A stretch of 64,000 nt of DNA from Patescibacteria group bacterium (GCA_018902845.1 JAHIPV010000009.1:8950-72949); one strand, 5' to 3'. Counted from the stretch's first letter, positions 1 through 41,402 are shown. A program made the numbers and translations. The notes: generated from the letters alone by a model not told the origin.

Positions 1-145
1 ATGGTAATGAATAAATATAAAAACGGATTAAAAATTTTATATTGTAAAGAAAAAAGAAAAAAATAAATTGTTTTGATAGTATGACCAGAAGGGAAAGAAC
101 CGGTATCGTACCAGGACTGAACCAGGCCTTTGGGAAGTTTCATTT

Positions 146-176
146 GCCCCCCTGCGGGTGACTGCGCTGGTGCTTG
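146..176. repeat. GC-rich repeat module (CCCCTGCGGGTGACTGCGCT type)
   Basis: The same module recurs at 20874-20905, 23925-23960, 30090-30110 and 53036-53070. Confidence 0.8.
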
Positions 177-433
177 TTTTTGATACATTGGCCGTTTCCA
201 GTATGTTTTGTTTTTTAGAAACTTTTCTATAAATTCAGCCAAAACAGTTGCCAGTAAAATTTGCCAAAAAGTGTTGGCGTCTTTTTTGATAAGTAAAAAA
301 GAAATAAAAAATAGAAAAATCCAAATTAAATAGTTGAGAATGACAATGAGATTTTGGCCGAATTTAGAAGAATTAAGTTTTTCAAAAAAATCGGTTTTTG
401 ATTGCCAAAAAAAAATGTTTTTCACTGGAGTTT

Positions 434-2089
434 TTATTTTATAAAAATTAAATATTGAGTTGAAGTGTTATCTTTTGAAATATCGCTTGCTTCAGAAGCT
501 TGGCTATTTTTGTAATCATTAAAAGTATAAGGTGTTTGATCAGTTTTTGAAATTATTGAATAATCTGAATAATCGTTTGTTGTAACGTATATGACTTGAC
601 CGGAAAGAGTTTTTGTGTAATCGGTTTGTTCGAGTTTCTGCCTGTGTAAATTTGGTATAAAATATTGAAGAGAATCATTGATTGAAACAAATTCTTTATG
701 AGCTTTATCTGTAAAATATAAAGTTTTATATTTGTTTTTTGGATCGATGGCTAATATTTTTTCTAATTTTTTTATAAAATTAAAATGAAGAGTTTGTTGG
801 CCTGAAAGCTTGGTGTTTAAATACTGGTTTTGATAGATATAGCCTGTAGATAAAAAAAAGATTAAGTAAGCACAAAGAATTTTTATTATATATTTATTTT
901 TAGTTATTTTTAATTTTTTTAATATTATTACAAAATTAGTGAAAAGAATGGGAAAAATAATTAGAGCGCGATGCAGACGATAATCAACTCCATAATAGCA
1001 ATAGCCGCGAGATATAACAGCAATAACCAAGACAGCAATTGCCCAAAGAGAGGCGAGACTATTTTGCCAAAAAAGGAAAAGTGGGGATAAAATTAAAAAA
1101 ATAAAGATAAAATTGAATACCGGTGAAACAAAATTTATCCCCATGGTTTGAAAAATAAGATGTTTAAAAGCCAATAGAAGGTCACTTGTTAATTCTGTAA
1201 TGTTTTTATCTCCGGTAATCTGAATGTCATTTCTAAATCCTAGAGAAATTAAAAAAAGAAGGAGAGATGAAATAAACAAAAAAATGAAAAAATATTTTTG
1301 TTTTTTATTGATGTTTTTATTAAAAAATAAACAGAAAATAATCATTAAGGAAAAAAAGAAAAGAGATAGGCTTGGTGTGTAAGAAAAAATGAGATAGTAG
1401 AGAATAAAAGCAAAAAGAAAAAGAGGGGTATTTTTTTTATCTTTTATATAATGAAGAAATAATCCACTAATTATAAGGGCAAAAGAAAAAGGGAAAATGC
1501 TCTGTTCAAAACTAAAAAGAAGACGGTTAAAAAAGTCAATGTGAAAAAAGGAGCTTAAAATTAATGCACCGACAAGATCGCCAAAAAGAGAAAAATTAAA
1601 ATATTTTAATATTGCTGAGGAGAAAATGATAAGACCTAAAATAAAATATAAAGCTCCCCCGGTATGAAGATTAATTAGGCTACGTCCAAAGAATAAAGAT
1701 GGTAAGGTCGGTAAAAAATATTGACGAGCAGGATAACCAAAAAGACAGGTTTGACGAAAACCTTTGTCCGGTGATTGTTCAATATGATTAAGAGCGCAGG
1801 CAATTTCTTGAGGGGTTTCTCCGCTTAGGTTTGTTGCTAAAGGAATATTTTTAAAAATAATAAAAAGCAAGAAAATAATTAAGGCTGAAGTAAAAATACT
1901 TTTTTTCTTTGGAATATAAAGGATAATTTCCCAAAAGCATTTACAGGCAAAAATAGCTACATAGAGATAAGAAAAAAACCATAAATAAGTTCCAAATTTG
2001 CCAAAAGGTAAAAATTTTATAGAAAAAATATCGATTATGACCAGTAAAATAAAAGTTAGATAACCGGTAGAAAGATATAGCTTTTTCAC
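434..2089 (-). CDS. GT-C fold membrane glycosyltransferase (ArnT/PMT-like)
   Basis: 551 aa with more than 10 predicted TM helices and a long N-terminal hydrophobic core, as in the GT39/GT83 superfamily. It sits in the glycosylation locus. Confidence 0.5.
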   Translation of the reverse strand: MKKLYLSTGYLTFILLVIIDIFSIKFLPFGKFGTYLWFFSYLYVAIFACKCFWEIILYIPKKKSIFTSALIIFLLFIIFKNIPLATNLSGETPQEIACALNHIEQSPDKGFRQTCLFGYPARQYFLPTLPSLFFGRSLINLHTGGALYFILGLIIFSSAILKYFNFSLFGDLVGALILSSFFHIDFFNRLLFSFEQSIFPFSFALIISGLFLHYIKDKKNTPLFLFAFILYYLIFSYTPSLSLFFFSLMIIFCLFFNKNINKKQKYFFIFLFISSLLLFLISLGFRNDIQITGDKNITELTSDLLLAFKHLIFQTMGINFVSPVFNFIFIFLILSPLFLFWQNSLASLWAIAVLVIAVISRGYCYYGVDYRLHRALIIFPILFTNFVIILKKLKITKNKYIIKILCAYLIFFLSTGYIYQNQYLNTKLSGQQTLHFNFIKKLEKILAIDPKNKYKTLYFTDKAHKEFVSINDSLQYFIPNLHRQKLEQTDYTKTLSGQVIYVTTNDYSDYSIISKTDQTPYTFNDYKNSQASEASDISKDNTSTQYLIFIK

Positions 2090-2107
2090 TAGTCAAGTAT
2101 ACTAGAT

Positions 2108-3334
2108 GTGATGAAAAGGATTTTGATTTCTTGTACTTATTATGAACCAAATATTTCTGGAGTGACTGTATACGCCAGAATTTTGGCTGAAAAGATGGTT
2201 GGTGAAGGCTTTGACATAACCGTATTAAGTTCCAGATTTCAAAAAAACTTGGCAAAACAAAAAACAAAAAATGGAGTGAAAATAAAAAGATCTAGGGTAC
2301 TGTTTAGACTGAGCAAGGGTGTTTTTATGCCATTTTTCTGGCTGGATGCAATAAAAGAAGTTAAAAAAACGGATATTGTCAATTGTCATTTGCCACAAGT
2401 GGAATCTTTTATTTTGGCCATATTGGCAAAAATTTTTAAAAAAAGATTAATAGTAACGCATCATTGTGAATTTGGAATTGATGGGCTTTGGCACAATAAA
2501 ATAATCGGCTTAGTCACCTACCCTTTTCATTTTTTAACTTACTTATTAGCTGACAAAATCGTTTCTTATACAAAAGATTACGCTTATGTCTCAATTTTTT
2601 TGAGATTTTTTAAGAAAAAACTTATTTTTGTTTTACCACCGGCAGTGGTGGGAAAAGAAAATAAATTAAAAATCAAAGAGATCCTTCGGTCGCTAGAGCT
2701 TCCTTGGGATGACGGCGAGAGCGTCATTCTGAGCGGAAGCGAAGAATCCCAAATGAAATGCTTAACTCCCACGGGATCCCTCGACTTCGCTCGGGATGAC
2801 AGTGTCAAAATAATCGGATATGTGGGTAGAATTGGGTGGGAGAAAGGGCTAAATTTTTTGATTATGGCATGTAAAAAAATTAACGAAAAAAGAAAAGTCA
2901 AACTAGTATTGGTAGGGCCATATGAAAATGTGGCCGGAGATGGGAGTTATAAAAAATTAAGAGGATTAATCAAAAAAAATAAAGACTTGGTGGTTTTGCT
3001 TGGAGCAATAGACCATGAGGATTTGGCTAATTTTTATAAAACTTGTGATTGCTTGGTTTTGCCAAGCACTAATAATTTGGAAACTTTTGGGATTGTACAA
3101 ATTGAGGCGATGGTGTCGGGATGCGGTGTAGTGGCGTCTGATTTACCTGGGGTAAGAATGCCGGTTAAATTAACCGGAATGGGAAAAATTGCAAAAATTG
3201 GGGATAGCAATGATCTGGCAAAAAAAATAGAACAAGTTTTGGAGAGTAAGTACAGCAAAAAACAGATTAAAAAAGCTAGGGAGATTTTTAGTTCGGAAAG
3301 ATTTATTAAAGAATATAAAAAGATTTTCTGGTAA
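2108..3334 (+). CDS. Glycosyltransferase family 4 (GT-B fold). The real start is probably the ATG at 2111. Carries an in-frame repeat insertion at 2681-2803.
   Basis: N-terminal Glyco_trans_4-like region and C-terminal Glycos_transf_1 region with motif ETFGIVQIEAMVSGCGVV. The middle segment ELPWDDGESVILSGSEESQMKCLTPTGSLDFARDDS is a translated repeat element. Confidence 0.8.
   Translation: MMKRILISCTYYEPNISGVTVYARILAEKMVGEGFDITVLSSRFQKNLAKQKTKNGVKIKRSRVLFRLSKGVFMPFFWLDAIKEVKKTDIVNCHLPQVESFILAILAKIFKKRLIVTHHCEFGIDGLWHNKIIGLVTYPFHFLTYLLADKIVSYTKDYAYVSIFLRFFKKKLIFVLPPAVVGKENKLKIKEILRSLELPWDDGESVILSGSEESQMKCLTPTGSLDFARDDSVKIIGYVGRIGWEKGLNFLIMACKKINEKRKVKLVLVGPYENVAGDGSYKKLRGLIKKNKDLVVLLGAIDHEDLANFYKTCDCLVLPSTNNLETFGIVQIEAMVSGCGVVASDLPGVRMPVKLTGMGKIAKIGDSNDLAKKIEQVLESKYSKKQIKKAREIFSSERFIKEYKKIFW
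2681..2803. repeat. ~123-bp composite repeat block inserted in frame in the GT4 gene
   Basis: Contains TCCTTCGGTCGC, GTCATTCTGAGCGGAAGCGAAGAATCCC and GGGATCCCTCGACTTCGCTCGGGATGACAG. Confidence 0.85.
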
Positions 3335-3344
3335 AATTGAGTAT

Positions 3345-3551
3345 ATGTATGATTGGAGTACTGACACAACAAGGCTAATAAAGGATAAAGATGCGTGGGA
3401 GAAATGGAAATTAGAGCAAATGATTAATTTTGGTTTAAACGGCAAAAAACTCTCAAAATTAAAATTAAAAAAGTATTGGGATGAATTAGATATAGATCCT
3501 GATAAAAGAAATTATTTAAAGTTTTTGCTATGGGAAGATCCTAATTATTGA
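3345..3551 (+). CDS. Hypothetical small Trp-rich protein
   Basis: 68-aa ORF immediately downstream of the GT4 gene. No recognisable motif. Confidence 0.3.
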   Translation: MYDWSTDTTRLIKDKDAWEKWKLEQMINFGLNGKKLSKLKLKKYWDELDIDPDKRNYLKFLLWEDPNY

Positions 3552-3582
3552 CTTTTGTTAATACTGAGTATATGATATTAAT

Positions 3583-3822
3583 ATGTTGCAATTAATAACA
3601 ATAACACCAAATTGGCAATTTTATATTCCAGGAAATATTAGAAAACAAATAAAATTAAACAGACCAACAAAAGCTAAAATAAGTGTAAAGAATAAAAAAA
3701 TCGTTATTGAACCAATTAAAAGTAAAATATTGACTGGTGCCGGTATGTTTGCCGGCTCTAAGCCAAACAGAAAGATCGATGTTGATAATATCCGGGATTT
3801 TATAGATTATTCGCAATGGTGA
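3583..3822 (+). CDS. AbrB/SpoVT-family antitoxin (VapB-like)
   Basis: 79 aa with a swapped-hairpin-like N-terminus (NWQFYIPGNIRKQIKL). Overlaps the downstream PIN gene by 7 nt. Confidence 0.55.
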   Translation: MLQLITITPNWQFYIPGNIRKQIKLNRPTKAKISVKNKKIVIEPIKSKILTGAGMFAGSKPNRKIDVDNIRDFIDYSQW

Positions 3823-4235
3823 AAATAAAAAAAGTTTTTATTGATACAAATTTTTGGATTCGTTATTTTACTAAAGACAACGAAATTCAATATAAGGCAA
3901 CGGTTGATTTGGTTGAAAAAATTGAGTCTGGTAAGTTTCGTCCTTTTATTTCTGCCATTGTTTTTCTTGAAATTAACTTCGTTCTTTCTCAATTGTACGA
4001 TAAAAATTTAAAGCAAATAAATAAATGCTTTGATTTGATAATGTCATTAAGAAACCTTGTTATTGTAAATAAAACTGATTTTGAAAAAGCTTTAAAATGG
4101 CATAGGAATTTGAAAATTAAACTACCAGATTGCCTAATCGCATCTTGTCTTCCAGATAATTGTGTTTTAGTAAGTTGGGATAAAGATTTTAATAAAATAA
4201 AAGAGATTGATAGTAAAAAACCTAGCGAGTTTTAA
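3816..4235 (+). CDS. vapC: PIN-domain toxin (VapC-like)
   Basis: N-terminal FIDTNFWIRYF motif with acidic residues typical of a PIN domain. 139 aa, translationally coupled to the upstream antitoxin. Confidence 0.7.
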   Translation: MVKIKKVFIDTNFWIRYFTKDNEIQYKATVDLVEKIESGKFRPFISAIVFLEINFVLSQLYDKNLKQINKCFDLIMSLRNLVIVNKTDFEKALKWHRNLKIKLPDCLIASCLPDNCVLVSWDKDFNKIKEIDSKKPSEF

Positions 4236-5029
4236 TTCTTTGTTGCAAATAAAAAGCCTATGTTATTGTGAATTGGGTTTGGGTGAGTTTTGATTTTAAA
4301 ACCATTTTTACTAAAAGTATTGATTAAATCTTTAAGCTTGTTTGTGGGATTAAATAAATGATATTCCATGATAATATTTTCGATTTTTTGATAAGTTTCT
4401 TTGTTTAAATTAAGAAAAATATCAAATTCGGCGCCTTCACAATCACATTTAAGCAAATTACAAGTTTTGATTTTGTTAACTTGAAAATATTTTGATAATG
4501 GCATTGATTTTACTCTCTCTCTCTCTCTCTCTCTCTCGATTCCGACTTCTTGAATTGTCCTCGTGTTTAGAAAGTTGGAACTGTTTATATTCAGAGTTAT
4601 ATTATTATTTGTGGCAATGGCAAGATTGTTTGTAAAAATATTTTTTATTTTATTTTGAGTTATATTTTTTTGTAAAAGTTTACATGATTCAAAGAAAGGT
4701 TCAATTGCATAAATTGTATTAGATTTAGATTTTTTGGCGGCAAAAATTGAAAAATCCCCCACTCCCGCCCCTATGTCAATTATTATCCAGTTTTTTTTAA
4801 TTTTTATTCCAAAAACTTCATAATCTTTTTTTAGATAAGTCTCTGTTAAAACCCACAAATCCATTATGTTTCGCAGTTGGAATTTTGTTTTGTCTTTTAA
4901 AACAATGGTCGTGTTTTTGCTTGTATGAAAAATTTGATTAAAAAATAATTTTGATAGAGAAAAAGTCGGATGTTTAATGTTTGTAAACAAAACAAATAAA
5001 GTTTGAAGATAATAAAATATTTTTTTCAT
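4232..5029 (-). CDS. FkbM-family SAM-dependent methyltransferase. Contains a (CT)12 microsatellite.
   Basis: Motif IIDIGAGVGDFSIFAA and downstream KCDCEGAEFDIF resemble FkbM. The ERERERER run is encoded by (CT)12 at 4513-4537. Confidence 0.7.
   Translation of the reverse strand: MKKIFYYLQTLFVLFTNIKHPTFSLSKLFFNQIFHTSKNTTIVLKDKTKFQLRNIMDLWVLTETYLKKDYEVFGIKIKKNWIIIDIGAGVGDFSIFAAKKSKSNTIYAIEPFFESCKLLQKNITQNKIKNIFTNNLAIATNNNITLNINSSNFLNTRTIQEVGIERERERERVKSMPLSKYFQVNKIKTCNLLKCDCEGAEFDIFLNLNKETYQKIENIIMEYHLFNPTNKLKDLINTFSKNGFKIKTHPNPIHNNIGFLFATKN
4513..4537. repeat. (CT)12 dinucleotide microsatellite inside the FkbM methyltransferase CDS
   Basis: Perfect CT repeat read directly from the sequence. 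It encodes ERERERER on the minus strand. Confidence 0.9.
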
Positions 5030-6936
5030 TTTTTCTTAAAAATTAAAACTTTGGGGTGGTCGTAGACGGTGAAGGCTTCTTCGGATGTGTCGTCGCGGAT
5101 GTAAATACCGGGGTATAGGCATTGGCTATCAATAGTAAACCATTTATTTGTTTTTTCTTTGTAAGGAAAATTGGTGGGGCCGAAATAATAACATTTTTTT
5201 AAAAATGGCAGGTTTATCCCTGGGTAAGAATTAATTTCTATTAATTTTGTAAAACTTAATTTTTCATCAAAGAGGTTTTGGTAAAATTTTGATGTTTGGG
5301 GATATTTGTTTGGTACTGGCGGGATGGAACCCCAAAGACGATTTGATGACATGATCATATAATCGGCATTATTTATAATTGGACTTAATCTTTGCCATTT
5401 TTCTGGTGTGTCTGGATCGTAAAGCGATAGCATTTGACCACTGTAACTGCTGGCAGTTTGTTTTGGTAAGTTTAATGGAAGAGGATCGTCCCAATATTCA
5501 TTTGTAATTAAGGATTCAATGGGAATATTTTTGTAAATCCAGTTTGATGCCTGAACGCGGGAATGAGGGCGGGAATAGATAGATAGAAAAGAAATGCAAA
5601 ATATAAAATGGAAAATAAAAGTAGTAAAAATGAATTTTAAATTAGAGGTTGGCTTGATAGCGAGCAAACATATAAATGGGTAGATTGGTAAAAAATAACG
5701 CATAGTAGTGACAAATTGAGAGCCCTGAAAAAAGAAAAGAAGGATAATCCAAGCCAACAAGAGAAAAACAATAGGATTGTGATTTTTTAAGATTTTGAGT
5801 TTTGTTCCAAAATCAGTGGTTATAAGATTCCTCGACTTCGCTCGGAATGACACGATTGTTTTGAGAGTGAAACTGATAATTTTAAAAAGTGAAATGAAAA
5901 ATAGGATTGATAGAGGTAAACCAATGCCCCAGAAAACAAGATTTTTTAGGGGGAAAAGAATGGGAGTTTTACTTAGCCATTGAACGGCTGGTGGAAACCA
6001 AGCATCTGGATCATTAAACGACTGAAGTGTTTTTAAATTGTCAATAAACTGAGGGTTGGGTTTGATAAGGGAAACAAAAGCGTATGGCTGAACAAGACGA
6101 AAAACAAGAAAAGTAGTTAGCAAAAAGTAAGATCCGAGAAAAATTAACTTGATTAAACGAATGATATTAAAAAAGTTTTTGGTTTTAAAAAAATAAAACA
6201 AAAAGAATAAAGCAATAACTGGAGAAAAAAGAAGAGCAGAAATTTTAGATGCCATGGCAAGACCAAAAAAAATTGGCGAGAGAAGTAAACTCCAGCTCTG
6301 CTGGAGACCTCGAACAAGTCGAGAGATCCCTCGACTACGCTCGGGATGACAGTTTCTTTTTGTTAGCCAGTGAGATAATAGTGTAAAAGTGGCGAAAATA
6401 AAGAAGTTTAAGAAAGTGTCAACGGCAAAAAAATGAGAGAGCTGAATTGGAAAAATACAGGTTGCGTAGAAAAGGCTGGGAAGAAAATATAATAACGGCC
6501 AGGTGTTTTTTGACTTGGGTGAGGTTTTGTTGCGACTGTATAATGGTTGTTTCTTGAAAATTAACTTTGAAATAAGATACAAGGAAAAAATGTTTAGGGA
6601 ATCAAAAAAAGCTGAAAGTGCGCGACCCAGAAAGTGAATTTTACCGTAAGAATCGAGATTTAGTATGGTGGCTAAATATTTTGTCAAAAAAATAGGAAAG
6701 GTGCCATAAACAAAAAACTGATATTCTTTATAGTTGTATGGATTTAGCGGAGAGATATTAGTATTTAGGTATTGTGTAAAGGAAATCGGAAGTTTTATTC
6801 TTTCGGTTACCATGGTCAAAAATCTTTCGTCTGGGTGGAGATGCTGATCGTTGTCCCAATTAATACCGTAAAGACGAAGAGACAAGGCAAAGAGGAAGAT
6901 AAGGATTAAAATTATTTTGTTTTTATGATTTTTCAT
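5026..6936 (-). CDS. GT-C fold membrane glycosyltransferase (PMT/ArnT-like) with two in-frame repeat insertions
   Basis: 636 aa, polytopic, with an HPDERF loop motif after TM1. Repeat-derived segments are HPERSRGISRLVRGLQ (6309-6352) and SFRAKSRN (5827-5854). Confidence 0.55.
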   Translation of the reverse strand: MKNHKNKIILILIFLFALSLRLYGINWDNDQHLHPDERFLTMVTERIKLPISFTQYLNTNISPLNPYNYKEYQFFVYGTFPIFLTKYLATILNLDSYGKIHFLGRALSAFFDSLNIFSLYLISKLIFKKQPLYSRNKTSPKSKNTWPLLYFLPSLFYATCIFPIQLSHFFAVDTFLNFFIFATFTLLSHWLTKRNCHPERSRGISRLVRGLQQSWSLLLSPIFFGLAMASKISALLFSPVIALFFLFYFFKTKNFFNIIRLIKLIFLGSYFLLTTFLVFRLVQPYAFVSLIKPNPQFIDNLKTLQSFNDPDAWFPPAVQWLSKTPILFPLKNLVFWGIGLPLSILFFISLFKIISFTLKTIVSFRAKSRNLITTDFGTKLKILKNHNPIVFLLLAWIILLFFFQGSQFVTTMRYFLPIYPFICLLAIKPTSNLKFIFTTFIFHFIFCISFLSIYSRPHSRVQASNWIYKNIPIESLITNEYWDDPLPLNLPKQTASSYSGQMLSLYDPDTPEKWQRLSPIINNADYMIMSSNRLWGSIPPVPNKYPQTSKFYQNLFDEKLSFTKLIEINSYPGINLPFLKKCYYFGPTNFPYKEKTNKWFTIDSQCLYPGIYIRDDTSEEAFTVYDHPKVLIFKKK

Positions 6937-8660
6937 AAAATTAAGTCTTCTATTTCTTCTTTTGATAAATAATTTTGTTTTTTGTAAATTCTTATAACAG
7001 GATGATCAAATACGGAAAAGGTTTCTTCGGCATTTTCATCTGATAAAAGGAACGGAAAAACTGAAAACTGTTTTAATTTTTCAAATCCCAGTTTACCAGA
7101 AAAAAGAGTTTGGTAATATTTCTGAGAGTATGGAAAAAGGGATCCTTCTCCCGCCACGGCGGGATCAGGATGACGACGGTATTGGTTTTTGAAGATACGG
7201 CGGGATGGTATAAGTATGTAATCACTCTGATGAATCTGTTCTACTAACAGTTTTGGTGAATCAGGATCGCTGTCCAAATTGTAAAAATCAAAATTGTGTA
7301 CGTCTAACTGATGCTGATTAACCGGTACGTTTATAACATTGCCGGCTTCAGAAAGAATTTTTGTATGAGGCAAGAGGTTATTTTTAAGCCAATCAGAGGC
7401 AGTTATGCGAATATCTGGTTTTAAATAAATTGAAAAAAATATAATTCCGGGTAATATTGAAAAAATGATTAATATTTTTGATAAAAATTTGTATTTTTTG
7501 ATCTGTTGAAAAAAAACGATTGATAAAAAAGGAAAAACAAAAAAAATCGGAGACATGAAACGAGACCATTTGGTGTAAAGAAAAGAATTGTAAAAAAAAT
7601 AGACAAGAGCAGGAATGAGAACGACTAGCCAGTTAATTAATGTGTCATCCCGCTTAGCGGGACGTGGTGATCTCGTAGGAAATGTAAAAGATGTGGTTGT
7701 AACTCCGGCGGGATTGCCACGTCGTAAAACTCCTCGCAATGACAGAATTGCTCCAATTATTGCAAATAGCAATACAGGCGGGCCGACGGCGTAGGGGAAA
7801 ATTTTGGTAAATTGAAAAAGAATTGGTGTGGAGTTTAAAAACTGGTTAGTGTAGAACATTTTAGTTTTTCCCATAGCAACAGAGGTTTCATAATTTAAGG
7901 TTGATCTAAAATCAGGTCCGGCAATAAGGTTGAATGGAGAAAAAATTATGAAAAATAGAGTGCTATTGAGTAAAAGAAAAGAAGTGAGAAGAAGTAGGTA
8001 ATTTTTTTTATTTTTTTTAAAAAAAGCAAAAAAAATAGACAAAAGCATTGGACCAAGAAAAAAAAGAGAAGTGATTTTTGAAGCCAAGCCAATACCGGTG
8101 ATAATCGAGGATAAAAATATACTTACCAGAGATTGATTTTGATAAAAATTGAGAGCCAAAAATATGTTTATGGCGAAAACGAAAATAAGCAAGGATTCGG
8201 TGGTACCAAAATGAGCTAATTGTATTAAGGCCGGTGTAAAAATTAAAAATAAAAGCAATAAAACACTTTGTTTAAATGAAAAAAATAATTTTTTGGAAAT
8301 TAAATAAAAAATGAAAACTGAAATTGAAGAAAAAAGAGATGAATAAAACCTCAGCATCAAAACAGAGTTAATAAAATTATTTGGTAGTTTTAATGAATAA
8401 AGAGTGAAAAAAGCCAGATAGAGAGGAAATTGACCATAAGCAAAAAAATGAGGGTTTAAGTCCGTTATTTTTAATTTTGATATAGCAGTGGCCATATTGT
8501 TTTCATCCGGATGAAAAAAATAAGAATCCGCCCAATCAAGTTTATAAAAACGAGTGAGGATAGTAAGAAAAAAGAGAAAAAAGATTAAAAATGTTTTTTT
8601 TGAGAAAAACGCTTCGCTAGATTTTTGGGGCTGTTTTTTAAATAACATAGATAATAGCAA
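6933..8660 (-). CDS. GT-C fold membrane glycosyltransferase (paralog) with an in-frame repeat insertion
   Basis: 575 aa, polytopic, with an FHPDEN loop motif similar to the neighbouring paralog. The segment RRGNPAGVTTTSFTFPTRSPRPAKRDDT is encoded by repeat modules at 7643-7745. Confidence 0.55.
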   Translation of the reverse strand: MLLSMLFKKQPQKSSEAFFSKKTFLIFFLFFLTILTRFYKLDWADSYFFHPDENNMATAISKLKITDLNPHFFAYGQFPLYLAFFTLYSLKLPNNFINSVLMLRFYSSLFSSISVFIFYLISKKLFFSFKQSVLLLLFLIFTPALIQLAHFGTTESLLIFVFAINIFLALNFYQNQSLVSIFLSSIITGIGLASKITSLFFLGPMLLSIFFAFFKKNKKNYLLLLTSFLLLNSTLFFIIFSPFNLIAGPDFRSTLNYETSVAMGKTKMFYTNQFLNSTPILFQFTKIFPYAVGPPVLLFAIIGAILSLRGVLRRGNPAGVTTTSFTFPTRSPRPAKRDDTLINWLVVLIPALVYFFYNSFLYTKWSRFMSPIFFVFPFLSIVFFQQIKKYKFLSKILIIFSILPGIIFFSIYLKPDIRITASDWLKNNLLPHTKILSEAGNVINVPVNQHQLDVHNFDFYNLDSDPDSPKLLVEQIHQSDYILIPSRRIFKNQYRRHPDPAVAGEGSLFPYSQKYYQTLFSGKLGFEKLKQFSVFPFLLSDENAEETFSVFDHPVIRIYKKQNYLSKEEIEDLIL

Positions 8661-9573
8661 TCATCATTAGTCCCCAGGAAAGTACAGAAATCAAAATTGG
8701 TATATCGGTGGCGATTATTTTTTCTGGTCTTTCGCCTTCCTGCATTTCAAAGATTATTTGACCATATCTCATGATACCGATTATGACAGGAAACAAAGTT
8801 ATCATATACCATTTGCGATTAAGGGCTTTTGGGATGTTATTTAAAAGAAATTGATGAATTAATCCATCAAAATGAACCGGTTCTTCAAAAAAAGTGAACA
8901 TAGCGTATGTAATAAGAGTGGCAACGGCAAAAATAGATGAATAAAAATTAAGCAAAGCTTTTGTATAGCCCTGTAAGGCTGGTCTGGTTTTTTTACCGGT
9001 ACCAACCAATTCGCTCCTGCGTTTACCACTGGCGATAAAAAGAGAAAGAAAAATAACCGTAAGCATTAACCAAACCGGAAGATGATAACCAGTGGCCAAT
9101 TCACCAGCATAGACACGAATGATAAAAAATAACGATATGCCCAAAATGTCGAAAAGTGCTTTCTTTTTGAAAACAAATGAGTACATAAATTGAAGACAAA
9201 TAAATAGAAGAGAAGTCACAAAAAATGAGATATTGATTGACAAAGAAATAAAAAGACCCAAGATTGCCAAGAGAAAAGAGACAAAGATAGCTTCGTTTTT
9301 TAATAAAACACCACGAGCCAAGGGGCGGTTACATTTGGTAGGGTGCATTTTATCTTTTTCTATATCTACAATATCGTTAACCAGATAAGACGAAGACGAT
9401 AAAAAAGAAAAAGTGCAAAAAGCCAGAATTGATTTTAACAAAAGACTGGAATCTAGTAGTTGACCGTTGATAATTAAAGCGGCAAAAAGACTGAGATTTT
9501 TTATCCATTGTGTTGGCCTTAAGGCCTCAAAAACGGACAAAAACTTAGAGTTTTTATTATTTTGACCCGACAC
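8638..9573 (-). CDS. UbiA-family prenyl-phosphate phosphoribosyltransferase (decaprenyl-phosphate phosphoribosyltransferase-like)
   Basis: Motif NDIVDIEKDKMHPTKCNRPLARG matches the NDxxDxxxDxxHPxKxxRPxAxG signature of DPPR synthase-type UbiA enzymes. About 8 TM helices. Confidence 0.7.
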   Translation of the reverse strand: MSGQNNKNSKFLSVFEALRPTQWIKNLSLFAALIINGQLLDSSLLLKSILAFCTFSFLSSSSYLVNDIVDIEKDKMHPTKCNRPLARGVLLKNEAIFVSFLLAILGLFISLSINISFFVTSLLFICLQFMYSFVFKKKALFDILGISLFFIIRVYAGELATGYHLPVWLMLTVIFLSLFIASGKRRSELVGTGKKTRPALQGYTKALLNFYSSIFAVATLITYAMFTFFEEPVHFDGLIHQFLLNNIPKALNRKWYMITLFPVIIGIMRYGQIIFEMQEGERPEKIIATDIPILISVLSWGLMMIAIIYVI

Positions 9574-9574
9574 A

Positions 9575-10417
9575 TTACAATAATATCAGAAGTCCTAGCA
9601 AGGAAACAATGGATCCAAATATCATTAAGCCCTTGGTGGGGAAGTCAACACCAGCATCGGGTAGAACTATTCTGGTTGGACTTGGACCTTGGGCTATATA
9701 GACAGGTGTATCGGTTGGTCTTGGAGTGCTGGTTGGCTGTGGAGTTCCTGTGGGGGTATTGGTGGGTGTGTTGGTTGGAGTATTAGTGGGTGTGTTAGTG
9801 GGCGTATTGGTTGGAGTGCTGGTAGGAGCGGTACAGCAAGTAAGGTAAGAAGGGTTGATAATACAAGCATCTTCAAATTGAGACATAGCACAGTAAGAGT
9901 TACCGTCATCAGTATCGATACAAATTAGACCAGATTGACAAGGATTAGACGAATCGTCGCAGGGAGTATAGCCACAGGCATTTGGTTCTGGAGTTGGGGT
10001 GTTGGTTGGAGTATTAGTGGGTGTGTTAGTGGGCGTATTGGTTGGAGTGCTGGTTGGGGCGGTACAACAAGTGATATAGGAAGGGTTGATAATACAAGTG
10101 TCTTCAAATTGAGACATAGCACAGTAAGAGTTGCCATCATCAGCATCGATACAAATTAGACCAGATTGACAAGGATTGGATGAATCATCGCAGGGAGTGT
10201 AACCACAAGCATTTGGCTTTGGAGTTGGAGCGACTACGGTAAAGTTTAAACTACAGGGCAGAGGTGCTTCTTGAGCCTGCGGTCTTTCCGGTACAGTTGG
10301 CTTAACTTCTTCCTGGCTAATTTGTTTTAGCCGTTGAGCAGTCAAAATTGCCACACCGGCCAGAATAATGGTGCTAATCAGGCTAATAATGATGGTTAAT
10401 TTTTTCTTTTTATTCAT
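9575..10417 (-). CDS. Secreted/anchored Cys-rich repeat protein with Thr-Pro linkers. The start is probably the internal Met at 10417.
   Basis: N-terminal TM/signal sequence (MNKKKKLTIIISLISTIILAGV). Two near-identical ~65-aa Cys-rich modules (NACGYTPCDDSSNPCQSGLICID...CC), each followed by TPTNTPTN linkers. Confidence 0.6.
   Translation of the reverse strand: MNKKKKLTIIISLISTIILAGVAILTAQRLKQISQEEVKPTVPERPQAQEAPLPCSLNFTVVAPTPKPNACGYTPCDDSSNPCQSGLICIDADDGNSYCAMSQFEDTCIINPSYITCCTAPTSTPTNTPTNTPTNTPTNTPTPEPNACGYTPCDDSSNPCQSGLICIDTDDGNSYCAMSQFEDACIINPSYLTCCTAPTSTPTNTPTNTPTNTPTNTPTNTPTGTPQPTSTPRPTDTPVYIAQGPSPTRIVLPDAGVDFPTKGLMIFGSIVSLLGLLILL
9735..10225. repeat. Two tandem ~240-bp near-identical repeats encoding the Cys-rich module plus TPTN linker
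   Basis: Long identical stretches, e.g. GGTTGATAATACAAG..TCTTCAAATTGAGACATAGCACAGTAAGAGTT.. appears twice. Confidence 0.85.
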
Positions 10418-10419
10418 AA

Positions 10420-11946
10420 TTATTGGGCTGCCCCCCAGGTGGTACAGTTGCCTTCCTTGCAAACACGGCATTGGACACTATAGGCACCAGGAATATCAAT
10501 AGTGATTGATTGAGAATCAGCCATCCAGTGGTCAGCGCCGGCATAATCAGCAAAACGTAAACTTGTAACAACCCAAGGAATATTATTGTAGTCTCCGGCA
10601 TCAATGTTATAGCGGAAGTCGAACCGATCGGGACCGTAGTTATTGGTGCCAGTATCAACACAAGTAAAATTAACTTCATCACCTAAACTCGGAGTACCAG
10701 ACGGATCCATGGTGATGTCAACACAAGCAAGTTCAGGTAGTGGTGTTGGCGTGGGGGTGTTAGTTGGAGTGCTGGTGGGAGCGGTACAACAAGTGATATA
10801 GGAAGGGTTGATAATACAAGCGTCTTCAAATTGAGACATAGAGCAGTATGAATTGCCATTATCAGCATCGACACAAATTAGACCAGGCTGACAAGGACTG
10901 GATGAATCATCGCAGGGAGTATAGCCACAGGCATTTGGTTCTGGAGTTGGAATTTGTGTAGGAGTATTGGTGGGGGTGGGAGTGGGAGTTCTGGTGGGGG
11001 TGGGAGTTAAGGTAGGGGTGCTGACTCTGGTTGGAGTAGGTGTTGGGATTCTGGTGGGGGTAGGAGTAGTAAGTGTGATGGTTTCAGTACAAACAGAGTT
11101 TGCCTGAGACGGCCAAGAATCGTTTGAAACAGCTGGATTTTTTACAACAACAGAGATATTAGTTCCGTTTAGATTGGCTATATTTGTAAATGTGTGAGTA
11201 GCGGTACAGATAATTTTTTTGGCTCTAGGATCATGACCCATAATTGCCCATGATTGAGTGGTACCGGTAGATGAATCGGGTTGGCAAGTTGATGTAATTC
11301 CTTCGTCTCCGGAAGTCATTGTGGTTGAACCCGATAAGGCAAACTTAAATTTAACTGCACTGCTATTCATAATAATTGAGGCGCAACCTTCGCCATGTGG
11401 ATCACTGATATCACTAGGACAAGCTAGTTTGCTTGTCGCCGGCAATTCACTATAACCTGTTGCTGTTATTGTCAAATTTTCTCCATCAATACGATATTGA
11501 ACATCGATACAATCGTCACAATTTGTGTCATTGTTTCTGTATAAACTGGCGGCACCGTAACCGCTATAAAATTGGTCTTTTTGAAGGGAAGAACATTTAA
11601 CGGGATAATTACCGTAGACATCGGTTGCTTCTCCGCCAACCTGACATGATCCTGGTGGTCCAAAATTTGGACCTCCTAGCGGAGGACTATTTTCACCGTC
11701 TTTTTTTATTCTAGTAATTGAATAGAAATTTGAAGTTTCTCTGCCACAAGGGCCAGAGATATTTCCATTGCACCAGAAACACCAATCCCAGTATTGATCC
11801 AAGGCAACATCGTATGCTTTGTCACGAATATCCTGTTTCTGTTTGACTAAAACAACGCCAGCGACTAGAGATAAGAATAAAAAAAATACCGACAGGACAG
11901 GATATAATTTTTCTGCTGATTTAAATTTTTCGAGTATTTTGGCCAT
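10420..11946 (-). CDS. Secreted Cys-rich surface protein carrying one copy of the same module
   Basis: N-terminal signal/TM, many Cys, a TPTPT linker region, and one copy of the NACGYTPCDDSSSPCQPGLICVD module shared with the downstream gene. Confidence 0.6.
   Translation of the reverse strand: MAKILEKFKSAEKLYPVLSVFFLFLSLVAGVVLVKQKQDIRDKAYDVALDQYWDWCFWCNGNISGPCGRETSNFYSITRIKKDGENSPPLGGPNFGPPGSCQVGGEATDVYGNYPVKCSSLQKDQFYSGYGAASLYRNNDTNCDDCIDVQYRIDGENLTITATGYSELPATSKLACPSDISDPHGEGCASIIMNSSAVKFKFALSGSTTMTSGDEGITSTCQPDSSTGTTQSWAIMGHDPRAKKIICTATHTFTNIANLNGTNISVVVKNPAVSNDSWPSQANSVCTETITLTTPTPTRIPTPTPTRVSTPTLTPTPTRTPTPTPTNTPTQIPTPEPNACGYTPCDDSSSPCQPGLICVDADNGNSYCSMSQFEDACIINPSYITCCTAPTSTPTNTPTPTPLPELACVDITMDPSGTPSLGDEVNFTCVDTGTNNYGPDRFDFRYNIDAGDYNNIPWVVTSLRFADYAGADHWMADSQSITIDIPGAYSVQCRVCKEGNCTTWGAAQ
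10745..10950. repeat. Third copy of the Cys-rich module repeat, in the adjacent gene
   Basis: GGTTGATAATACAAGCGTCTTCAAATTGAGACATAGAGCAGTATGAATTGCC is highly similar to the copies at 9735-10225. Confidence 0.8.
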
Positions 11947-12005
11947 ACTAATAATAGTTTTTTAGATATTTTAATCTTAGATTAATATTTTTTTTAATGC
12001 AAATG

Positions 12006-13337
12006 CTAGATTAATAGTAGTGCGATAATTATTGCAGGAATTGATAAAAGAAGAGGCAGGGTGGTTGGTAAGGTAAAACCGGTAGTTGGAACTTGCGAAT
12101 CAGTACTAGGCTTGGCGGTTCTGATAGTGATGGTTGGAGTTAGACTTGGAGTCTGGGTGGGTGTGGAAGTTGAGGTTGGACTAAGAGTGAGGACAGGAGT
12201 GGGAGTAAAGGTAGAGGTGGGGGTAAGGGTAGGGATATTGGTTGGTTGGGCCGATGAGGAAGCGGTGAACCCGGGATTATCTTGGGCCGCCAAAACAACA
12301 AAACTTTTTGTAATGCTCTCCTTTAATCCAGTTTTCGGATTAAGAAAACTTATTGTCAGACTGTGTTGCCCTGGTGACAGGGACTGGGGAGAGCTCCAGC
12401 GCCAATTTCCACTAGAATCGCTTTGAATTTCTGAATCGAACTGATCGGATGAGTGAAGTTCAATTTTTAGAATAACACCTTGCGGAGCAGTCCCAAAAAA
12501 TTCCGGTTGTTGTGTAGATAAAAATTCACCGTCTTTGGGGTTGATAATATCTAGCTCTTTTTCTATGGCTTGATCTGGCTGTTGTTGTGTAACGGGCATA
12601 TTGCCAATGTCTTGTTCTCTATTGTTATTTTCATCTGAAGAAAATCCGTGACCAATAATAATATCCGGTACCGGATTATTGTTTGATGTATTGCCTGTTA
12701 CTAAAGTAACCTGACCGTCTTTAGAAAGAACGGCAATCTCTTCCTCTACATTTTCCGGTGGGACAAACCAAGAACTTTTTTGAGTGTTATAGCTGATGCT
12801 TAGTGGAATATTCCAGTTACCTTCTGACGTAACAAAAGAGGACATAGGAGCGGAAGAAGGGATATTTAGATAAAGGATGGCGATAGAAGCCGGCTGTTGA
12901 TTTGACTGTATAATTTTTCCCCAGGCTAAATTTGAATCAGGAATAGGGCCATCAAGCTTAGCTGGGGTGCTTATAACAAATTGATCGTTTTCAATTTCCT
13001 TTCCGTTGGCAATGATGGTGTATTGGTAACTTGAATTTTCCTTAAGTCCATTTACCTGAAAATAATGTATTTGGCTTTGAGGTTCAATTAATTGAAAAGA
13101 ATCTAAAACAAGCTGATTGTTTATGCCAAGGTTAACCGAGCATTTCTCTGGCGTTAAAAAAGACAAATCGACAGAGTGATCCGTTAAATTAGTAATTTGT
13201 ATACTTATCGGACTGCAACCGTTACTTGCCTTAGAAGTAAAAATTGCAGTAAGTTTGGTTAAATAGGTAGTAACAAAAACAACAATGATCAAAATGAAAA
13301 TAGCTACAATGGTTGGTATTTTTTTTTCTTTACTCAT
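12006..13337 (-). CDS. Secreted Thr/Pro-rich protein with C-terminal hydrophobic anchor
   Basis: N-terminal TM, a long TPTSTFTPTP linker, and a C-terminal LPTTLP motif followed by a hydrophobic tail. This could be a sorting signal. Confidence 0.5.
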   Translation of the reverse strand: MSKEKKIPTIVAIFILIIVVFVTTYLTKLTAIFTSKASNGCSPISIQITNLTDHSVDLSFLTPEKCSVNLGINNQLVLDSFQLIEPQSQIHYFQVNGLKENSSYQYTIIANGKEIENDQFVISTPAKLDGPIPDSNLAWGKIIQSNQQPASIAILYLNIPSSAPMSSFVTSEGNWNIPLSISYNTQKSSWFVPPENVEEEIAVLSKDGQVTLVTGNTSNNNPVPDIIIGHGFSSDENNNREQDIGNMPVTQQQPDQAIEKELDIINPKDGEFLSTQQPEFFGTAPQGVILKIELHSSDQFDSEIQSDSSGNWRWSSPQSLSPGQHSLTISFLNPKTGLKESITKSFVVLAAQDNPGFTASSSAQPTNIPTLTPTSTFTPTPVLTLSPTSTSTPTQTPSLTPTITIRTAKPSTDSQVPTTGFTLPTTLPLLLSIPAIIIALLLI

Positions 13338-13635
13338 TTGGATTTATAGTCGGCTCCTCTTCTGACCCTAGCGTTGGCTGAAGTATTGAGGACGGAGAGG
13401 CAATAATACTGGGGCGACTAATTGGAACAGAGGTAAATTCATCTCGTTTTTCAATTTCCAACAAAGTGTCGATGTTAAGGTTGGGATCAATTTTTTGCAT
13501 AACTGAACTGGTTTTGATTTGCTGAGATGGACCAATCAGATTAGAGTAACTTTTTTGTACTATCAAGAAAAAAATTAAAAAGAGAGTAAAACTACTGATA
13601 AAAATAAGATATTTAGAGATTTTTTGTTTTTTCAT
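13330..13635 (-). CDS. Small secreted/membrane protein
   Basis: 101 aa with an N-terminal hydrophobic segment, in an operon with the surface proteins. Confidence 0.3.
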   Translation of the reverse strand: MKKQKISKYLIFISSFTLFLIFFLIVQKSYSNLIGPSQQIKTSSVMQKIDPNLNIDTLLEIEKRDEFTSVPISRPSIIASPSSILQPTLGSEEEPTINPNE

Positions 13636-14299
13636 CGTTTTCTGACCAATAGTAAATATTTGTTTTTATGCTGGCATTAAAGACGGCCTCGTCCTCCTGG
13701 CCAGATTGTTTGCTTTTTTTTTGGCTAAGCTCTATCCTGTCAATTTTTATAAGACGGCGATTATTGGAAAAATCCTGAACCAAAAAAGGGATTTTGGAAA
13801 AATTGGTAGTGTTGTCGTCAATGTTGACTGAATAAAAACTAGTCATATCAAAATCAGAAGAGGAAAATTCTTTTTCATCATTTAGATCAAATTTAATCTC
13901 GTTGAGATTAATATCGGAGTTGTGGGCAATATTTTTAAGCTGAATAGCGGCATGAGCAAATCGGGGACTACTGGGAAGACTTGATTCTATCAATGAATAT
14001 TTTTCCTGAATGTCAGAAAATGCATCCTGTGCATAAACCAAATCGTTTATTTTTGAACGCATTTGATCTGAAAGAGACTGTTTGGCACGGATTTCACCAA
14101 CAAGGCTGGAAATAGTGGTAATTGCCGGCCTGACGGCAGAAAAAAGAAAAACGGAAATTAAAAAGAAGGTGGCCGAAATTTCTACTGTTTGACCAAACCT
14201 TTTGTTTTCCCTCTGTTTTGCCAAAAACTCGGTCAGCGAACTGACCTGGGCAACGATGACATTTTTTTTAAGTGGTTTTGTTATTGTTGTTTGTTTCAT
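13613..14299 (-). CDS. Bitopic membrane protein (PilO-like or FtsB-like; uncertain)
   Basis: A single TM helix after about 50 aa, followed by a coiled-coil-rich periplasmic region. Confidence 0.3.
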   Translation of the reverse strand: MKQTTITKPLKKNVIVAQVSSLTEFLAKQRENKRFGQTVEISATFFLISVFLFSAVRPAITTISSLVGEIRAKQSLSDQMRSKINDLVYAQDAFSDIQEKYSLIESSLPSSPRFAHAAIQLKNIAHNSDINLNEIKFDLNDEKEFSSSDFDMTSFYSVNIDDNTTNFSKIPFLVQDFSNNRRLIKIDRIELSQKKSKQSGQEDEAVFNASIKTNIYYWSENDEKTKNL

Positions 14300-36446: not shown

Positions 36447-36830
36447 CTAGTTTAGTTTTTTAAAGTCTTTGTCAAAGGAGAAAACTTCGGCTTGGTTAGT
36501 CTGGGCGCAGACAAAAAGATATGCATCTACTAAATCAATATTTTTGTTTTGATAAATAACCGTAGCTTGTTTTAACTCTTCTTTGTTATTAATTACCAAA
36601 AAATTCATACTCAAAATGATTTTTAGATGAGTAACAACATCCTTTTTGTTTCTTTTGTAAACACTTTTTAATACGTAAGCGAATTCAAAAAGAATTTGTG
36701 GAATTGTAAATAATTTACAATTATTTTTTTGGGCTTGCAAAAAATATTTTCGGGCTAAATTGGATTGTCTTGTATTGTCGTTTAAAAAATATCTTAAAAA
36801 AACGTTAGTATCCACGTATAGCTTTTTCAT
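36447..36830 (-). CDS. vapC: PIN-domain toxin (VapC-like), paralog of 3816-4235
   Basis: MKKLYVDTNVFLRYF N-terminus; 127 aa. Confidence 0.7.
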   Translation of the reverse strand: MKKLYVDTNVFLRYFLNDNTRQSNLARKYFLQAQKNNCKLFTIPQILFEFAYVLKSVYKRNKKDVVTHLKIILSMNFLVINNKEELKQATVIYQNKNIDLVDAYLFVCAQTNQAEVFSFDKDFKKLN

Positions 36831-40001: not shown

Positions 40002-40020
40002 TGGTCATTATGAATTATTG

Positions 40021-40101: not shown

Positions 40102-40111
40102 TAATTTTGTT

Positions 40112-41326: not shown

Positions 41327-41362
41327 TAAATAAGAATAGCATGGGAATAAGTTTTTTGGGTG

Positions 41363-41391: not shown

Positions 41392-41402
41392 TGTACAACA
41401 AA

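Follow-up and report, generated by a model that had tools for sequence, protein, structure and literature searches.

We analysed a 64,000-nucleotide stretch of DNA from a Patescibacteria group bacterium (GCA_018902845.1, JAHIPV010000009.1:8950-72949; hereafter the window), in whose left part a UbiA-family enzyme is encoded among genes for membrane proteins with a predicted glycosyltransferase fold and for Thr/Pro-rich surface proteins. The window has a GC content of about 35% and a gene content of Patescibacterium type, and we place it in Candidatus Shapirobacteria after the source-named close homologues of the locus proteins; several of its proteins are identical to NCBI entries from metagenome-assembled genomes labelled 'Patescibacteria group bacterium'. 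A sequence-only reading had proposed that positions 434 to 13,337 hold a lipid-linked glycosylation locus next to its likely protein substrates. A check of the open reading frames (ORFs) of the window found all the genes it described, and family matches agree with its clustering of GT4, FkbM methyltransferase and UbiA-family genes with three membrane proteins. The locus also extends left beyond 434, to a PAP2 gene that starts at 425 and is cut by the window edge. From 16473 to 1, the genes are tightly packed on the minus strand, except for two plus-strand genes (GT4 and PIN). In the direction of transcription of most of them, the genes of the locus are:

12006-13337, minus strand: 443-aa Thr/Pro/Ser-rich surface protein with a weak Big_13 match
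10420-11946, minus strand: 508-aa Thr/Pro-rich protein with no family match
9575-10471, minus strand: Thr/Pro-rich surface protein (TP298) of the TP459-type family
8638-9573, minus strand: UbiA-family enzyme, matched by models for decaprenyl-phosphate phosphoribosyltransferase (DPPR synthase, DPPRS)
6933-8660, minus strand: GT-C1, 575 aa, with a PMT_2 match and an AlphaFold2 (AF2) fold
5026-6936, minus strand: GT-C2, 636 aa, paralogue of GT-C1
4232-5029, minus strand: FkbM methyltransferase, matched by TIGR01444 and PF05050
3816-4235, plus strand: PIN/VapC gene, within the variable cassette
2108-3334, plus strand: GT4 glycosyltransferase, matched by Glycos_transf_1
434-2089, minus strand: 551-aa membrane protein with a GT-C fold in its AF2 model
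1-425, minus strand: N-terminal 141 codons of a PAP2 phosphatase with a GTG start at 425, recognised by its open frame and homology

The spacing is operon-like. The stop codon of TP298 lies 1 nt from the start of UbiA, the frames of UbiA and GT-C1 overlap by 11-23 nt (the true start of GT-C1 is probably the ATG at 8648), and GT-C2 overlaps both of its neighbours, GT-C1 and the FkbM gene, by 4 nt each. The sequence-only reading had placed the cluster directly upstream of the Thr/Pro-rich genes; the adjacency stands, but the orientation has to be reversed, with the Thr/Pro-rich genes 5' of UbiA on the coding (minus) strand.

The UbiA homologue contains NDIVDIEKDKMHPTKCNRPLARG, which fits the signature NDxxDxxxDxxHPxKxxRPxAxG earlier recognised in it. 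Three NCBIfam DPPRS models match the protein with 197.1 (NF008978), 171.5 (NF008977) and 162.6 bits (NF008976); competing UbiA-family models (heme O, MenA/UbiA, GGGP and ChlG) reach at most 52 bits. Against PDB sequences, Rv3806c (8j8j) scores 126.6 bits (E = 1.4e-35) and the other UbiA-family structures 36 bits (5e-8). By model and PDB scores alike, the enzyme sides with Rv3806c and not with the quinone and heme prenyltransferases, the grouping that the sequence-only reading had singled out for checking.

A cryo-EM study of Rv3806c (PMC10994848) defines the ligands of the Mg, ribose, 5-phosphate and pyrophosphate of phosphoribosyl pyrophosphate (PRPP), and describes the phosphoribose site as not common to other UbiA enzymes. 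We compared these ligands (R22, K28, Y70, N73, D77, K87, R90, Q135, Y138, K143, Y157 and K208) with the window protein, which keeps ten of the 12 unchanged and, like some mycobacteria, has F in place of Y157. Across 81 Shapirobacteria sequences, the counterparts of R22, K28, Y70, N73, D77, K87, R90, Y138 and K143 are invariant, as is the F at Y157, and the counterpart of Q135 is kept in 75. The family comprises 705 clusters at E <= 1e-30. Its nearest members outside the clade, one of them from a Patescibacterium, are named DPPR synthase by JGI and NCBI; some Patescibacteria homologues already bear this name. Judged by its sequence, the identification of the enzyme as a polyprenyl-phosphate 5-phosphoribosyltransferase (PPPRS) of the DPPRS (Rv3806c) type, and not a quinone or heme prenyltransferase, is well supported.

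To see the locus in its lineage, we assembled 80 loci from GTDB species representatives and four from assemblies, annotated by ORF calling and BLAST against a reference set; the contents of the cassette were counted in the 53 loci that cover the whole distance from UbiA to PAP2. Related loci have their genes in the order MetRS, S20, MurJ, PilN-like, PilO-like, small protein, Big_13 protein, UbiA, GT-C1, GT-C2, PAP2, DUF2298 and UvrD, with a TP459-type gene before UbiA and a cassette between GT-C2 and PAP2 as optional members. The core from UbiA to DUF2298 is kept in about 80 Shapirobacteria species. Both GT-C paralogues occur in 51 of the 53 loci (L064 and L074 are examples of related loci in which GT-Cs are lost), and at least seven loci are minimal, with nothing between GT-C2 and PAP2. 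The cassettes contain GT4 enzymes (26/53), methyltransferases (about 20; FkbM-type genes in about 10), extended SDR epimerases (PF01370; 11), extra PMT_2-type GT-Cs (about 10) and DUF362 proteins (3). On the other side, essentially all loci long enough to show it have the Big_13 protein 5' of UbiA; the two are separated by a TP459-type gene in about half of these loci and by an FAD oxidoreductase gene in one subclade. Many species-representative records with Shapirobacteria-type synteny (L006, L008, L010, L011 and many more) are titled 'uncultured Gammaproteobacteria', 'Candidatus Methanoperedens' or 'Parcubacteria', and appear to be mislabelled metagenome-assembled genomes.

The PAP2 frame at the window edge is 53% identical (E = 1e-53) to a gene of a related locus (L001) that carries Pfam PAP2, and its protein has the motifs KxxxxxxRP and PSGH. 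A reading of the region left of 434 as a PAP2 pseudogene with a stop-filled frame was rejected, the correct frame being open. PAP2 lies downstream of UbiA, after the cassette, in the 53 related loci. The mycobacterial protein Rv3807c, by which DPPR is dephosphorylated, is of the PAP2 family as well, the same enzyme family as the protein encoded here. Rv3807c has been described as a phosphatase unrelated to the HAD family (PMC11127046). Its family and conserved position make the window protein a candidate 5-phosphatase, which would convert polyprenyl-phosphate (polyprenyl-P)-ribose-5-P to polyprenyl-P-ribose. Separately, we observed a family of 180-aa proteins whose DxDG and DDD motifs are HAD-like and which no Pfam or NCBIfam model matches, beside GT4 in L046 (15308-15850), L057, L069, L078 and L081. 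It occurs together with PAP2 in three of these loci and could replace it in the PAP2-less L069 and L078.

The sequence-only reading had taken three polytopic membrane proteins for GT-C-fold enzymes, and this is borne out for two of them by AF2 models and Foldseek, and for the third (GT-C2) by paralogy. GT-C1 matches PMT_2 at 9.4e-8 (32.9 bits; gathering score 26.1) and scores 19.9 against PF02366 (PMT), below the gathering score of 22.7; the source-named among its 956 homologues are Shapirobacteria GT39. The top 37 Foldseek PDB matches of its AF2 model (pLDDT 85.7) are all GT-C enzymes, led by STT3 (3.5e-7) and followed by ALG12, PglB, AglB, DPY19, ArnT and Pmt. GT-C2, assigned to GT-C by paralogy alone, is 25% identical to GT-C1 over its full length (BLASTP, E = 1e-26). 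The HPDE motif that had been noticed in both paralogues occurs once in each, right after the first transmembrane (TM) helix (residues 50-53 of GT-C1 and 34-37 of GT-C2). Its PDE part is invariant in 69 GT-C1 homologues (D52, E53) and 59 GT-C2 homologues (P35, D36, E37), and the latter also share an invariant C-terminal EE.F.VYDHP motif. As a side observation, GT-C1 has two lineage-specific in-frame insertions, at 7653-7718 and 7149-7181 (residues 315-336 and 494-504), with GC contents of 52% and 67%; they are missing from more than 80% of the aligned homologues and coincide with low-confidence loops of the AF2 model.

By sequence, the third protein (434-2089) matches no Pfam or NCBIfam model and no PDB entry and is not similar to GT-C1 or GT-C2, so that its assignment required a structural test. 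Its AF2 model, built with 37 homologues, has a pLDDT of 89.3 and a pTM of 0.91. In a Foldseek search of the PDB, GT-C enzymes took ranks 1-15 and 17-19, and a GPI-transamidase chain rank 16; the matches include PglB (1.7e-4), ArnT (2.3e-4), AftA, STT3, DPY19 and EmbB. The top matches of both modelled proteins are GT-C enzymes, and not members of a non-glycosyltransferase family, the outcome that would have spoken against the sequence-only reading. The family has 55 members, in which E91 of the first loop is invariant, and BLAST recognised it in one related locus alone (L069). We considered whether the protein might be the counterpart of a 505-aa membrane protein or of DUF2298 in the related loci, and rejected this for lack of similarity. 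The model suggests that it is an accessory (cassette) glycosyltransferase of GT-C fold, from a small family that has no Pfam model.

How might these proteins work together? In Citrobacter youngae O1/O2, ORF15 is a PPPRS-phosphatase, ORF14 a MATE flippase and ORF12 a GT-C enzyme of GT136 (Kelly et al., 2024; PMC11127046). The scheme of that study runs from a UbiA-type synthase through a phosphatase and a flippase to a GT-C, with an optional epimerase setting the pentose, and further systems were predicted in Gram-positive bacteria with unknown glycans. In the window, too, a PPPRS, a phosphatase (of presumed specificity) and GT-Cs are encoded together, as in a three-component system. UbiA was the sole lipid-sugar donor synthase found by family searches in the window locus, and no GT2/GtrB/Ppm-type gene was found among the cassette families identified in the related loci; since no other donor synthase was found in the locus, the GT-Cs are tied to the product of UbiA. 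Going by sequences and structural models, the locus probably encodes an extracytoplasmic glycosylation system with a polyprenyl-phosphate-pentofuranose donor.

In the mechanism we propose, UbiA (8638-9573) would move ribose-5-phosphate from PRPP onto polyprenyl phosphate at the cytoplasmic face, a step with strong sequence support. PAP2 (1-425) would then strip the 5-phosphate to give polyprenyl-P-ribofuranose, as its family and conserved position suggest, and the lipid-linked sugar would be flipped to the outer face. Outside the membrane, GT-C1 and GT-C2, enzymes by their fold, would pass the pentofuranose to a cell-surface acceptor, with catalysis presumably via the invariant PDE motif of the first outer loop. 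The accessory GT-C (434-2089) would take part in this genome, as would the conserved DUF2298 protein encoded just past the window; we found no functional literature on DUF2298. Finally, the cassette genes (GT4 and the FkbM methyltransferase) may tailor the glycan in a species-specific manner.

Several results weigh against this interpretation. The NF008978 score of 197.1 is below the equivalog cut-off of 207, and the other two DPPRS models also stay below theirs. Rv3806c K208 is not conserved in the window enzyme, where the counterpart of the adjacent R207 (R197) is invariant. The best NCBIfam matches of PAP2 are weak and are to undecaprenyl-diphosphate phosphatases, so that, by sequence, PAP2 could merely recycle the lipid carrier, and the PAP2 gene is missing in two related loci, L069 and L078. 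The GT-C structural matches are fold-level (TM scores 0.42-0.51) and not specially close to arabinofuranosyl- or ribofuranosyltransferases; searched against the PDB as single sequences and as profiles, the three GT-C proteins gave no match, and it was structure prediction only that resolved them. Finally, no flippase candidate (GtrA, SMR or MATE) was found in the locus; the dedicated flippase of known systems is a MATE protein, or GtrA/SMR in the mycobacterial and Pseudomonas versions. The neighbouring MurJ, of the MOP family, was considered for this role and rejected: it passes the NCBIfam MurJ equivalog cut-off (257.7 > 235.55), which marks it as an ordinary lipid II flippase.

A more sceptical explanation is that the genes form no functional unit, being neighbours by inherited order, with UbiA serving another lipid pathway and the GT-Cs using another donor. 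In this lineage, synteny is indeed kept well past any single pathway, and the NCBI name of the UbiA protein is merely 'UbiA prenyltransferase family protein', a generic name that it bears because its best DPPRS score is just under the curated cut-off. However, frame overlaps from UbiA through GT-C1 and GT-C2 to FkbM point to co-translation, the residues that bind PRPP are invariant, UbiA is found again beside GT-C/PMT_2 genes in unrelated genomic contexts, and a second donor synthase was not found in the window locus. We consider it very unlikely that the genes are unconnected, and continue with a pentofuranose glycosylation system as the preferred reading.

The sequence-only reading had deduced a pentose-phosphate-polyprenol donor from the DPPR-synthase-like gene, 'as in mycobacterial DPA' (decaprenyl-phosphate arabinose). 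The DPPRS scores, PAP2 and synteny uphold the donor, but the likeness to DPA is not supported as worded. Neither DprE1 (FAD_binding_4/ALO) nor DprE2 genes were present among the ORFs of at least 120 aa in the 64-kb window, and none were seen in the UbiA-PAP2 cassettes of the 53 related loci; in these, BLAST against the reference set served to recognise known families, and Pfam or visual inspection covered a sample of the rest. Flanking ORFs of no known family were also considered as hidden DprE1 or DprE2 genes and discarded; by their N-terminal sequences, those inspected resemble TsaD, uracil-DNA glycosylases and a membrane protein. Published systems without an epimerase transfer ribofuranose (PMC11127046). 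Because there is no epimerase in the locus, ribofuranose is expected here, and the sugar in this genome is most likely ribofuranose rather than arabinose.

The alternative, a DPA-like polyprenyl-P-D-arabinofuranose with its epimerases encoded elsewhere in the genome, strikes us as improbable. The DPA route begins with DPPRS and PAP2, and some relatives have epimerase-like genes in their loci (SDR in 11/53; FAD oxidoreductase in L075-L079, L082 and L087), but these belong to other families than DprE1 and DprE2, and both the absence of the latter and the ribofuranose precedent count against it. Relatives with an SDR epimerase or FAD oxidoreductase probably convert the ribofuranose to another pentofuranose. 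The FAD gene is of the amine-oxidase family (PF01593; NF005560 363.8 bits) and lies directly 5' of UbiA, or overlaps it, in L075-L079 and L082, in a deeper Shapirobacteria subclade. It is also found one gene from UbiA in L087 (7636-8901), an unrelated Patescibacteria contig. Its product could serve as an oxidase of the lipid-linked pentose that is distinct from DprE1.

We also investigated the candidate acceptors. The long Thr/Pro linkers reported earlier for the proteins of 9575-13337 are real: within 30 residues, threonine plus proline (T+P) make up at least 63% in only 3 of the 70 window ORFs and 40% in the next best, and only 8 of the 1035 other ORFs of the related loci reach T+P >=0.5. 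In the DNA, the linkers are 12-nt tandem arrays. TP298 (9575-10471) is 280 aa long from its likely MNKKKK start at 10417 and has an N-terminal TM segment and two 48-aa eight-Cys modules (10064-10207 and 9833-9976), each followed by a (TPTN)n linker (9983-10066 and 9701-9835). It ends in a 'RIVLPDAGVDFP + TM' signal. In 39 TP459-family homologues (L001-L083), we observed the corresponding C-terminal signal as GPSPTRI(V/I)LPxAG(V/I)DFP and about 20 hydrophobic residues, ending in LILL; the tail is uncharged, most of the 39 members have the signal and a few lack it, and no NCBIfam model describes it. The eight-Cys module (CGYTPCDDSSNPCQSGLICID...CC) occurs in three copies in the window proteins.

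The third copy is in the protein of 10420-11946, which has an N-terminal TM segment and Thr/Pro linkers at 10942-11088 and 10732-10788 (T+P 80% in 30 residues), and is of a secreted or membrane-anchored type without a C-terminal anchor. The protein of 12006-13337 matches Big_13 at 1.6e-4, below the gathering score, and has a Thr/Pro/Ser-rich stalk (12126-12245) and a sortase-type C-terminus of VPTTG and a hydrophobic segment, with no charged tail; its relatives end in [VI]P[KT][TS]G, a TM segment and KK. Family searches of the window ORFs found no sortase gene.

That the GT-Cs O-glycosylate the Thr/Pro stalks of these proteins with pentofuranose, as the sequence-only reading supposed, is a real possibility, though clearly short of an even chance. 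Such a system would be comparable to the TfpW pilin arabinosylation of P. aeruginosa or to actinobacterial PMT. In about 80 species, the gene of a Thr/Pro-rich protein with a sortase-type signal stands on the 5' side of UbiA, usually as its immediate neighbour (the gap is 1 nt in the window), and Thr/Pro-rich linkers are confined to these families. The proteins are extracytoplasmic, with N-terminal TM segments and C-terminal sorting signals, and minimal loci have no backbone-building Leloir glycosyltransferase, WecA or polymer exporter. GT-C1 is PMT_2-like, the best structural matches include the protein-modifying STT3, PglB, AglB, DPY19 and Pmt, and TfpW is a precedent for a polyprenyl-P-pentofuranose and a GT-C acting on Ser/Thr. 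However, adjacency to UbiA, the earlier argument for these substrates, is weak evidence despite its conservation, because the gene order is rigid and the unrelated MetRS, TatD and UvrD are kept equally. Thr/Pro before a sortase signal is also expected of a wall-spanning stalk, glycosylated or not, the TP459-type gene is missing from about half of the loci, and three or more GT-Cs per locus exceed the need of a simple O-transferase. Pilins were considered as TfpW-style acceptors and rejected, since the window pilin (48807-49259) is not Thr/Pro-rich, with a T+P maximum of 27%.

A different acceptor is suggested by the contig surroundings of the five UbiA homologues that are nearest beyond the clade (37-46% identity). 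In L085 (8967-10055), L086 (8947-10008) and L089 (8961-10028), a WecA-like PF00953 gene shares 8-55 nt with the UbiA/DPPRS gene, and L088 has a larger PF00953 gene (8026-9540) one gene from UbiA. The three overlapping PF00953 genes score 84-94 bits as WecA vs 45-51 bits as MraY. Ahead of the WecA-like gene stand genes for a conserved membrane protein of 115-121 aa and for membrane proteins of about 500 aa; near UbiA there are PMT_2 proteins or membrane proteins of about 500 aa and no known family, and a PEGA/SH3_3 wall protein is next door in three of the five loci. No Thr/Pro protein is found beside these UbiA genes, except for a Thr/Pro tail in L089, which counts further against the Thr/Pro stalks as acceptors. 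The WecA overlap and the nearby membrane proteins therefore point to a WecA-primed lipid-linked glycan, following the logic of arabinogalactan.

Perhaps, then, and with a likelihood only a little under even, the pentofuranose of the Shapirobacteria locus goes onto a glycan that is linked to the wall or anchored by a lipid, comparable to arabinogalactan, lipoarabinomannan or a decorated teichoic acid, with primer and backbone genes elsewhere and the Thr/Pro proteins as unrelated neighbours. The sister loci, in which WecA, DPPRS and GT-C genes come together as in mycobacteria, favour this, and the systems in PMC11127046 all act on glycans, except the P. aeruginosa pilin arabinosylation. Likewise, the species-variable cassette (GT4, methyltransferases, epimerases and extra GT-Cs) resembles a polysaccharide serotype locus, and there are multiple GT-Cs per locus. 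Against it, WecA, a backbone glycosyltransferase, a Wzx/ABC exporter and an LCP catalytic domain were not found in the window, nor were they recognised in the related Shapirobacteria loci over a distance of 10 kb. Furthermore, BLAST shows no similarity between the GT-Cs of Shapirobacteria and those of the sister loci, except for a single weak match that pairs cassette-type GT-Cs, and the acceptor may therefore have changed between the lineages.

A more specific idea, which we put forward tentatively and hold to be rather unlikely as it stands, is that Shapirobacteria build ribofuranose or pentofuranose oligomers on the Thr/Pro stalks of sortase-anchored proteins, using a polyprenyl-P-ribose donor and the PMT_2-like GT-C pair. 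If true, protein O-pentofuranosylation, so far seen only in P. aeruginosa pilins, would form a surface coat in an episymbiotic lineage with small genomes, conserved yet variable between species and possibly phase-variable.

Turning to the cassette of this genome, the GT4 gene (2108-3334) matches Glycos_transf_1 at 1.4e-30 and Glyco_transf_4 at 5e-10, by which it is a cytoplasmic Leloir glycosyltransferase of the variable cassette. It bears an in-frame GC-rich repeat insertion at about 2690-2806. The FkbM gene (4232-5029) matches TIGR01444 at 1.6e-26 and PF05050 at 7e-14 and probably encodes a sugar O-methyltransferase. Inside it lies a perfect (CT)12.5/(GA)n tract (4513-4537), read as ERERERER. 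In an assembly from the same population, FkbM is split at this tract into MBU1088317.1 (181 aa), with a frameshifted tail after a shorter repeat, and then MBU1088318.1 (90 aa); the intact 265-aa form is found in at least four assemblies. This suggests slipped-strand on/off phase variation at the (GA)n tract, or an assembly error at the repeat. The cassette also contains the PIN/VapC toxin gene (3816-4235, plus strand), which BLAST did not find in any related locus; a second PIN gene lies at 36447-36830.

A GC-rich palindromic repeat, CCTCGACTWCGCTCGGRATGAC, occurs 11 times in the window (0 expected), at 2779, 5830, 6329, 21123, 32926, 39479, 44465 (minus strand), 44550, 45153, 53237 and 53625. 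It is read through in frame in GT4, GT-C2 (twice), a methyltransferase (32585-33835), the ORF at 37987-39540 and a radical SAM gene (53194-54330; twice). In GT4, the repeat and an inverted copy form a hairpin, with a fold z-score of only -1.7. The repeat is similar to palindromic elements that lie in frame within genes, such as those of Rickettsia. None of the 84 related Shapirobacteria loci contains it, and the exact 22-mer is found in at least 120 metagenome contigs.

The conserved upstream neighbours of the locus are:

14875-16473, minus strand: MurJ
14268-14852, minus strand: PilN-like protein
13613-14299, minus strand: PilO-like protein, with a weak PilO match (8.9e-4, below the gathering score)
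13330-13635, minus strand: 101-aa protein with a single TM segment

They are co-directional and close-packed with the locus, and their order is kept in about 80 loci. Type IV pilus genes are dispersed over the window (13613-14852, 35021-36421, 37149-41401, 42762-44456 and 48807-49259), with the PilN/O-like genes beside the locus and, elsewhere, PilM, PilC, PilB, an N-methyl pilin and possible minor pilins that have no family match. A promoter and terminator scan was not used, as it gave 59 promoter-like sites vs 57.1 ± 7.4 in shuffled sequence and terminator-like sites that were only modestly enriched.

The sequence-only reading called such a locus notable in an organism of this type, a fair remark: we found no literature linking Patescibacteria/CPR with decaprenyl, GT-C or O-glycosylation chemistry. 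The envelope chemistry of CPR bacteria is barely known, though their surfaces mediate host attachment and phage exposure, and public annotation gives the key genes only as 'UbiA family' or 'hypothetical'. A conserved pathway that consumes PRPP in a genome of about 1 Mb implies an important product, and the variable cassette in every species, with a possibly phase-variable methyltransferase, suggests diversifying selection on it. The chemical prediction is that a wall glycan, or else Thr/Pro-rich wall-anchored proteins, would carry ribofuranose or an epimer of it. The combination of DPPRS and GT-C known from the mycobacterial wall and from O-antigen side chains would thereby extend to a new phylum, with a different GT-C family.

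Compared with known systems, the locus shares with GT39/PMT enzymes (e.g. Rv1002c, which acts on Thr/Pro-rich secreted proteins) the PMT_2 match, a DE pair in the first outer loop and Thr/Pro candidate acceptors. It differs from them in a PF02366 score below gathering, and neither a MIR domain nor a GT2 polyprenyl-P-mannose synthase was found in the locus. With the group IV pilin O-arabinosylation of P. aeruginosa (TfpW, PsPA7_6245-6249), it has in common a donor made by a DPPRS homologue, pilus genes nearby and a GT-C gene beside that of a Ser/Thr-bearing protein, here only a candidate substrate. However, TfpW has a C-terminal TPR and a DDX motif, whereas the enzymes here have a PDE motif and an alpha/beta C-terminal domain; the candidate substrates here are sortase-type surface proteins and not pilins, and DprE1/E2 were not found.

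The mycobacterial and corynebacterial DPR/DPA pathway, with Rv3806c (DPPRS), Rv3807c (PAP2 phosphatase), DprE1/DprE2 and the Emb and Aft arabinofuranosyltransferases of GT-C type, follows the Citrobacter scheme with many GT-Cs, and the locus resembles its first half. Unlike in mycobacteria, DprE1/DprE2, a GtrA-like Rv3789 and galactan or mycolate genes were not found here, and the GT-Cs are not detectably closer to Emb/Aft than to STT3, ArnT and PMT. Nevertheless, a homologous DPPRS with its PRPP ligands, a separate PAP2 and several GT-Cs by the donor genes are common to both, and sister CPR lineages add an adjacent WecA-like primer enzyme, as in mycobacterial arabinogalactan synthesis. The Citrobacter system differs in having a fused HAD domain where there is a separate PAP2 here, a MATE flippase, whereas neither MATE nor GtrA was found here, and a single GT136 with a CBM in place of two PMT_2-type GT-C paralogues and DUF2298. 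It is also a serotype add-on to an O-antigen cluster, whereas the locus described here is a conserved core locus of a CPR lineage. In its overall logic, though, the predicted Shapirobacteria pathway runs as in Citrobacter, with a UbiA-type PPPRS acting on PRPP, a phosphatase yielding polyprenyl-P-Ribf, a GT-C working outside the membrane and optional SDR epimerases.

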